NCBI RefSeq assembly: GCF_003334355.1
Contig: NZ_QOWP01000028.1
Length of the DNA: 53,280 nt
Source: Escherichia coli
Lineage (GTDB): Bacteria; Pseudomonadota; Gammaproteobacteria; Enterobacterales; Enterobacteriaceae
Reading direction: 5' to 3' (one strand)
Position 1 is the stretch's first letter, and each line of letters starts with the position of its first letter. The translations under genes and the position numbers were made by a program. The notes under the pieces are model-generated. The model saw only the letters and a list, made by a program, of their open reading frames with translations, was not told where the DNA came from and did no database searches. Positions 12,128 through 12,182 of the stretch are shown in pieces.

Positions 12128-12182
12128 GCATCTGCAGCTCATGAGGATGAGAACCTCCGGGGGCAGGGAGGTTCGACTCGAC

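Follow-up and report, generated by a model that had tools for sequence, protein, structure and literature searches.

The hairpin and the T-arm-like 10-mer GGAGGTTCGA that follow the tRNA gene proK in the Escherichia coli contig analysed here (a stretch of 53,280 nucleotides, hereafter the window) very probably constitute the truncated terminal copy of an RtT tandem repeat, the number of units of which varies behind proK from strain to strain. The element itself is already known: RtT is described at the tyrT locus, curated in Rfam as RF00391, and its complete units at proK are annotated by PGAP in thousands of genomes. The stub present in the window is an unannotated fragment of it.

The proK locus of the window

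The tRNA-Pro(CGG) gene proK lies between an ORF of 574 residues (10200-11924) and one of 535 residues (12835-14442), which the annotation of homologous loci names eptB and dppA, respectively, the same neighbours that an earlier reading of the letters alone (hereafter the sequence-only reading) had assigned to the tRNA. The eptB-dppA spacer (910 bp) is 100% identical to that of E. coli strain PSS-12 in a megablast search of 5,426 complete E. coli genomes. The final 19 nt of proK (12074-12092) also form the opening part of the repeated unit, and are followed by an intrinsic terminator, whose 12-bp stem pairs 12099-12110 with 12114-12125 around a 3-nt loop and precedes a T run (U6 in the RNA). 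Such a proK-type terminator is present in every repeat unit of the Pro-type arrays. The truncated RtT unit and a BIME come next (Table 1).

Table 1. Features identified at the proK locus, with positions in the window
Feature	Positions	Strand	Basis or description
First GGAGGTTCGA copy	12065-12074	+	T-stem 5' strand and first half of the proK T-loop
proK, tRNA-Pro(CGG)	12016-12092	+	ARAGORN (sole tRNA found); Rfam tRNA model, 60.7 bits
108-bp segment (AATCCTC...GGTTCGACTCGA)	12074-12181	+	Single here, 0.64 of the 168-bp unit
proK intrinsic terminator	12099-12127	+	Inverted-repeat search; fold; repeated in L001 and L002
Truncated RtT unit	12127-12181	+	Identity with the K-12 proK RtT sRNA over its first ~54 nt
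Inverted T-arm-like segment GAGGATGAGAACCTCCG	12143-12159	+	15/17 inverted copy of the proK T-arm 12064-12080
Hairpin (RtT helix P2)	12151-12174	+	GAACCTCC, loop GGGGGCAG, GGAGGTTC
Second GGAGGTTCGA copy	12167-12176	+	In complete units, 5' half of the split T-arm
BIME, two inverted REPs	12186-12265	.	Rfam naRNA4/REP match on the - strand, 69 bits; abuts the truncated unit, outside RtT

The exact 10-mer of the proK T-arm that the sequence-only reading had reported past the gene, and had taken as tRNA-derived, is indeed there on both counts. It occurs exactly twice in the 53-kb window, against 0.10 occurrences expected from shuffled sequences, at least two matches being reached in 1 of 100 shuffles. 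The direct match around it extends to 13 nt with one mismatch, and past the second copy the sequences diverge (ACTCG, versus AATCC in proK). Comparison with other strains indicates that this repetition is not due to chance and that the 10-mer is homologous to part of the repeat unit found there. The hairpin that contains it had been described as perfect and 7 bp long; it is confirmed, but with 8 bp, GAACCTCC (12151-12158) pairing with GGAGGTTC (12167-12174) across an 8-nt loop, and its RNA folds at -17.8 kcal/mol (z = -3.2). The inverted T-arm copy at 12143-12159 had gone unmentioned in that reading; its GAGGAT corresponds to the 5' side of P1, the closing stem of RtT, and the pairing partner of GAGGAT, ATCCTC, is absent from the stub. 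The hairpin fails as an intrinsic terminator, being followed by GACTCGACG and no U tract. A simple promoter/terminator scan reports no site at the hairpin, but the same scan also missed the obvious terminator of proK and is thus uninformative.

The truncated unit begins on the + strand 35 nt past the 3' end of proK, at the same position as the annotated RtT of the K-12-like locus L001, and covers positions 1 to about 50 of the RF00391 model. The components of the RtT 5' segment, namely GGATGAGAA, the hairpin, and GGTTCGACTCGA, are all found within its boundaries. The break falls between CTCGA and CGTAGG, where the BIME begins, complete units going on with GCGAAGCGAG. The conserved ~61-nt RtT core (GCGAGAGARCG..GC...GC..CGRCCCG...) is missing, the window turning into the BIME at 12182, as is the RtT 3' end, no second AATCCTCTATCACCGACCA being found downstream of the stub to pair with GAGGAT.

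Rfam analysis with RF00391 (gathering score 45 bits) reports no RtT match in window positions 11800-12900, even at E <= 10, which is explained by a fragment too short for the curated model and is not evidence of unrelatedness. What assigns the stub to RtT is instead its identity with complete units over their 5' third, together with a custom covariance model, R1, built here from 70 RtT units. The only real hit of R1 in the window covers residues 12133-12269 (19.8 bits, E = 0.0025); the agreement is exact up to GGUUCGAC, about the first third of the model, and past model position ~47 the alignment is forced onto REP sequence. A second, weak hit aligns the T-arm and 3' end of proK as an RtT with its interior deleted. 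The relaxed search for tRNAs and pseudo-tRNAs that the sequence-only reading had recommended, performed with ARAGORN and the Rfam tRNA model (E <= 10), returns no second tRNA or tRNA pseudogene in the window besides proK. The proposal of a decayed tRNA copy comes close to the truth; the fragment is best accounted for as a truncated RtT unit.

An arginine-rich ORF of 64 residues (12126-12320, + strand) runs through the RtT stub. In K-12-type alleles, its frame is open across each 168-bp unit (56 codons) and resembles tpr at tyrT. A conserved tpr-like small protein was considered and rejected because the Pro-type and Tyr-type units use different frames (translated by eye), and the ORF is probably not a conserved gene.

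Copy number of the 168-bp unit

In L001, one more 168-bp unit lies in tandem behind proK; it is labelled "RtT sRNA" by PGAP and scores 101.3 bits with RF00391 (gathering score 45). The order after proK in this locus is the terminator, GAGGATGAGAACCTCC-GGGGGCAG-GGAGGTTCGACTCGA, the 61-nt GCGAAGCGAGAGAACGTTGCGCCAGCAACGGCCCGCAGGGCGAGCCACGAAGTGGCGAGTA, AATCCTCTATCACCGACCA, with which tRNA-Pro ends (19 nt), a second terminator and hairpin, and the BIME. A complete 168-bp unit comprises, in order, the last 19 nt of tRNA-Pro including CCA, the intrinsic terminator, the 5' RtT segment GAGGAT-GAGAA-hairpin-GGAGGTTCGA-CTCGA, and the ~61-nt conserved core, up to the next AATCCTC...CCA. The K-12-like, GmM062, and CUVET18-1475 loci contain one or two extra 168-bp units annotated as RtT sRNA, and the loci L002 and L003 two complete units each. 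Unlike the stub, these complete proK units pass the Rfam threshold and carry the PGAP label.

Subtracting 168 bp from L001 yields the window with 2 mismatches in 910 bp, and the breakpoint is ambiguous over 109 offsets, which places it within a 108-bp perfect direct repeat. This segment is present in at least two copies in K-12-type alleles, and as a perfect repeat it offers a site at which units can be lost or gained. In this strain, recombination or slippage between its copies has probably removed every complete unit and left the tRNA, the terminator, and the 0.64-unit remnant fused to the BIME. Since the window and K-12 exhibit only two other differences in 910 bp, the number of units changes on very short time scales.

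The comparison of the spacer across strains, advocated by the sequence-only reading, was performed by megablast of the eptB-dppA spacer against the same 5,426 complete genomes, and E. coli strains differ by insertions exactly here, in the form of 1-4 copies of the 168-bp RtT unit. Many genomes match the spacer in two pieces, with ~168 extra bases and an RtT sRNA beside tRNA-Pro. The 59-nt hairpin segment is found in 5,423 of the 5,426 genomes, in 1-5 copies each, all of them chromosomal and never on plasmids; it occurs only at the proK locus, and its copy number tracks the length of the array. The RtT core is present at proK in 2,668/5,426 genomes, with 1-4 cores each. The remaining half or so, like the window, appear from their sequences to keep only the truncated terminal copy.

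Complete units also occupy the locus in E. albertii, E. whittamii, Citrobacter, Klebsiella, Kosakonia, Franconibacter, and other genera. Given their presence outside E. coli, both within Escherichia and across many genera, we read the zero-unit state as a loss of complete units and infer this direction of change. E. albertii (L011) possesses the identical truncated unit and BIME junction, plus one complete unit, and the remnant is therefore older than E. coli and the complete units ancestral. That about half of the E. coli genomes are devoid of a complete unit might suggest the reverse, namely that the zero-unit allele is ancestral and that the K-12-type unit was inserted later, the hairpin and 10-mer being its original target. 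We consider this very unlikely: besides the distribution of complete units among the genera listed above, such an insertion would entail the duplication of a 108-bp target, and the fragment itself is RtT-specific (GGATGAGAA...GGTTCGACTCGA), being common to the tyrT and tRNA-Gln units. The arrays of K. pneumoniae (L051), Superficieibacter (L063), and E. albertii (L011) end with a partial unit just after GGTTCGACT(C/T)G, a shared end point that may be ancestral or recurrent. In other genera, the end falls behind the terminator or within the loop of the hairpin (L022, L070). Given the ends observed in K. pneumoniae and Superficieibacter, the partial copy might be a natural array boundary and not an accidental truncation.

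tRNA genes are common integration sites, and crossover sites within the T-loop are known. The sequence-only reading had viewed the fragment as a possible remnant attachment-site repeat. On this explanation, the partial tRNA copy would be the far-side repeat that remained once an integrase-driven island or prophage had integrated at proK and been excised. The stub resembles tRNA attachment sites in that a partial tRNA sequence is repeated after a tRNA gene, with the boundary of the repeat unit inside the T-loop, at A58/A59. However, the duplication takes in the 5' half of the T-arm, where attachment-site repeats would carry the tRNA 3' end, and the variable insert consists of 1-4 copies of a 168-bp structured-RNA unit, the number of which would change by homologous recombination, and not of an island. 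All 5,426 genomes match the locus, which is at least 80% contiguous in 4,766 of them, and the exceptions opened contain extra RtT units, IS621 or IS1397, or a BIME variant. In the E. coli loci opened, which represent part of the exceptions, neither an integrase nor an island was seen at proK, the larger insertions examined being IS621 and IS1397 in the BIME.

The phage and plasmid collections point in the same direction. Searched with the hairpin segment, they return few hits, which are Salmonella, E. coli, or Klebsiella chromosomal contigs or fragments filed there, and no mobile element. A scan of viral contigs for the RtT core returns only three matches, none of which shows a phage origin: L101 and L103 are Escherichia tyrT-locus sequences, and the third, L102, is an RtT unit with unrelated sequence adjoining. 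The attachment-site explanation is already largely refuted, and we regard it as scarcely credible next to a truncated RtT unit.

A few of the sequences met in these searches deserve description. The record OR850888.1 (H102, "Salmonella phage S.Kent 1-2-1", 7.4 kb), filed as a phage, holds a chromosomal proK-RtT segment, and NZ_CP069933.1 (H104), a 24.8-kb K. oxytoca "plasmid", contains a proK-RtT segment 100% identical to E. coli; both are probably chromosomal fragments or contamination. L102 (IMGVR_UViG_2660238126_000002, - strand, about 225-305) contains a tyrT-type unit cut at the start of the core, where the unrelated sequence adjoins, and may be an insertion or rearrangement breakpoint within an RtT array. 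The BIME found in the window is interrupted in other strains by IS621 (L003) or IS1397 (L005).

REP and BIME elements are, like the stub hairpin, GC-rich extragenic hairpins, and one of them abuts the stub. Unlike these elements, the hairpin segment does not possess the REP consensus and is confined to a single locus instead of being dispersed. The motif is thus not one of the REP-associated sequences found at many non-tRNA loci, the case that the sequence-only reading had set against its own interpretation.

RtT architecture across tRNAs and genera

A search for the RtT core in one genome per GTDB species yields 90 loci, in which the core lies 87-103 nt (or this distance plus whole units) after tRNA-Tyr(GTA), tRNA-Pro(CGG), tRNA-Pro(TGG), or tRNA-Gln(TTG). 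The family spans the Enterobacteriaceae and Thioalkalivibrio, the RtT linked to tRNA-Gln(TTG) belonging to the latter. They have a common architecture: a 5' strand that complements the T-stem 3' strand of the neighbouring tRNA, sometimes with the acceptor 3' strand as well, is followed by ATGAGAA, a local hairpin (GAACC.../...GGTTC), GA-CTCGAGCG, the core, and GTAATCC, after which comes the neighbouring tRNA's own 3' end through CCA. The T-arm-like positions track the neighbour, with GGAGG/CCTCC after tRNA-Pro and AAGG/CCTT after tRNA-Tyr, and the 3' ends of RtT match tRNA-Pro(TGG) or tRNA-Pro(CGG), whichever occupies the same chromosomal locus. The 10-mer is thus the 5' half of a T-arm, the 3' half of which (AATCCTC...CCA) lies ~61 nt further in complete units.

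Reportedly, the RtT RNA and the rttR repeats of the tyrT operon go back to work by Rossi and colleagues in 1981. They were also treated by Bosl and Kersten (1991), as relayed through PMC3318445. The RtT RNAs of Klebsiella and Thioalkalivibrio are reported to be expressed (PMC4147364, PMC8092127), and the literature still describes the function of RtT as unknown (PMC3318445; bioRxiv 10.1101/2024.07.17.603846). Our literature search returned no paper that links RtT with proK and no description of the split-T-arm architecture across tRNAs; both points concern the family and not the stub.

The tyrT locus of MG1655 contains four RtT units, the hairpin of which, GAA(C/G)CTT/AAGGTTC, is homologous to that at proK and fits the T-stem of tRNA-Tyr; the rttR annotation extends from just past tyrV to the next CCA. 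In both loci, the units are arranged in tandem (178 bp at tyrT, 168 bp at proK), each starts with the 19 nt that end the upstream tRNA, and each comprises the 5' motif GGATGAGAA-hairpin-GGTTCGACTCGAGCG, the same core, and a tRNA-like ...CCA end. The Pro-type units differ from those of tyrT by the intrinsic terminator present in each, by a hairpin loop 5 nt longer, and by their tRNA-derived positions given above. In contrast, the stub of the window retains only the first ~54 nt, devoid of the core and of the 3' tRNA-like end.

Other members of the family display features of their own. Far outside the Enterobacteriaceae, five Thioalkalivibrio loci (L016, L028, L066, L089, and L096) possess an RtT after tRNA-Gln(TTG), with a perfect 13-bp closing stem, GGGCCGGCAGGAT with ATCCTGCCGGCCC, that combines acceptor and T-stem sequences of this tRNA, and with compensatory CC/GG replacing TT/AA in the core hairpin. 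In L053, L056, and L064, the eptB-dppA locus encodes tRNA-Pro(TGG) instead of tRNA-Pro(CGG), and the downstream spacer matches the dppA upstream region; L073, L022, L076, L077, and L090 also have tRNA-Pro(TGG), the assignment of the locus by its flanks covering only the first three. In all eight, the 3' end of RtT follows the neighbour (CTCTCTCGCCGACCA), an agreement that would indicate that tRNA and repeat evolve in concert. In Kosakonia, Trabulsiella, and relatives (L043, about 5590-5770 on the - strand, L095, L018, L072, L092, L085, and L057), the tyrT operon opens with a tRNA-Tyr-like pseudogene, in which the 5' acceptor strand, D-arm, and variable arm are intact, the anticodon loop is altered, the 3' acceptor strand has diverged, and the T-loop holds the RtT core (...AAGGTTCGA[core]AATCCTTCC...). 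These pseudogenes look like tRNA/RtT chimeras that would have arisen from a crossover at the shared GGTTCGA.

The minimum free energy fold of the complete K-12 unit contains the closing stem P1, P2, which is the hairpin of the window, and four more hairpins. P1 (GAGGAT with ATCCUC) mimics the T-stem and acceptor side of the tRNA and encloses the hairpins, of which P2 comes first. In an alignment of 70 RtT units, the P1 pair 11-141 is AU in 32, GC in 29, and CG in 6 units. P2 has 88.6% of its cells paired, its pair 25-36 being CG in 32 units (Pro-type) versus UA in 31 (Tyr-type), UA is replaced by CG at two pairs of P4, and two-sided changes occur at four pairs of P5. Over the proposed structure, 84.9% of the cells are paired, versus 34-45% in controls with slid partners. 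This covariation appears to support the closing stem and hairpins of RtT. The changes in P1 and P2 go together with which tRNA lies next to the unit; copying from this tRNA may account for them as much as selection on RNA pairing does. The RNAalifold consensus lacked the P2 hairpin because the Gln-type units are gapped there. The pairing proposed in Rfam (TTCG with CGAA of CCCGAAGG) was set aside in favour of the local hairpin, as it presents no two-sided changes and one of its positions is unpaired in 29 of the 70 units. Columns 70 and 89 of alignment A2, which flank the core hairpin CGTTGC/GCAACG, read A..G in 56, G..A in 11, and A..A in 3 units; this non-Watson-Crick covariation may simply follow lineage.

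Function of the stub and significance

The stub probably has no function of its own. Several features make an inert remnant the most likely interpretation: neither the core nor a 3' partner strand for the closing stem is present, the terminator immediately upstream of the stub has a 12-bp stem and a U6 run, and the stub itself possesses no U tract and is no better conserved than its surroundings. In strains CFT073 and AR_0055, GAACCCCC introduces a C-A mismatch in the hairpin with no compensating change, and GGAAGAG replaces GGATGAG. The right arm of the hairpin is invariant in the six E. coli alleles aligned, and, given this invariance and the stability of the hairpin (z = -3.2), some residual role is conceivable.

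Such a role would require that the hairpin, or the 17-nt anti-T-arm (12143-12159), acts in read-through transcripts, as a back-up terminator, as a stabiliser or processing signal, or as a decoy that, by pairing with the proK T-arm, modulates the maturation of tRNA-Pro. The predicted stability of the RNA hairpin, the complementarity of the anti-T-arm to the proK T-arm at 15 of 17 positions, and the occurrence of the segment in all but three of the E. coli genomes and in E. albertii are consistent with it. Against it stand the lack of a U tract after the hairpin, the position downstream of the strong proK terminator (the 12-bp stem and U6 run), and the uncompensated disruption of the hairpin in CFT073 and AR_0055. 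Moreover, in more than half of the genomes the identity over the 59 nt is only 90-95%, no better than in the spacer around. A functional stub is thus quite improbable, and an inert remnant of the array is preferred. In strains that bear complete units, read-through transcripts would give a CCA-ended, tRNA-flanked RNA similar to rttR at tyrT.

A wider reading would see in RtT a family of tRNA-linked structured RNAs built as a split T-arm, with a zero-unit stub that may still influence the maturation of proK; taken as a whole, we hold it to be unlikely. The closing stem would imitate the tRNA next to it, on the T-stem and acceptor side, and the conserved core would be inserted in the T-loop. RtT would keep step with its tRNA (Tyr, Pro-CGG, Pro-TGG, or Gln), and would recombine with tRNA genes at the shared GGTTCGA, giving rise to the chimeras of Kosakonia and Trabulsiella. 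If this were true, the proK array would be a fast on/off contingency locus with 0 to 4 units, and the 17-nt anti-T-arm of a zero-unit stub could influence proK maturation via read-through.

Irrespective of this wider reading, the tRNA-like fragment downstream of proK needs no mobile-element explanation and should not be taken as evidence of a lost island. At proK, half of the E. coli genomes have an RtT stub that bears no annotation, and the rest have 1-4 annotated units; this simple 168-bp repeat polymorphism can mislead genome assembly as well as comparisons of sRNA gain and loss between genomes. For the family, the architecture found across tRNAs, with its split T-arm, its tRNA-mimicking closing stem, and its agreement with the neighbouring tRNA, leads to concrete hypotheses on the function of RtT.
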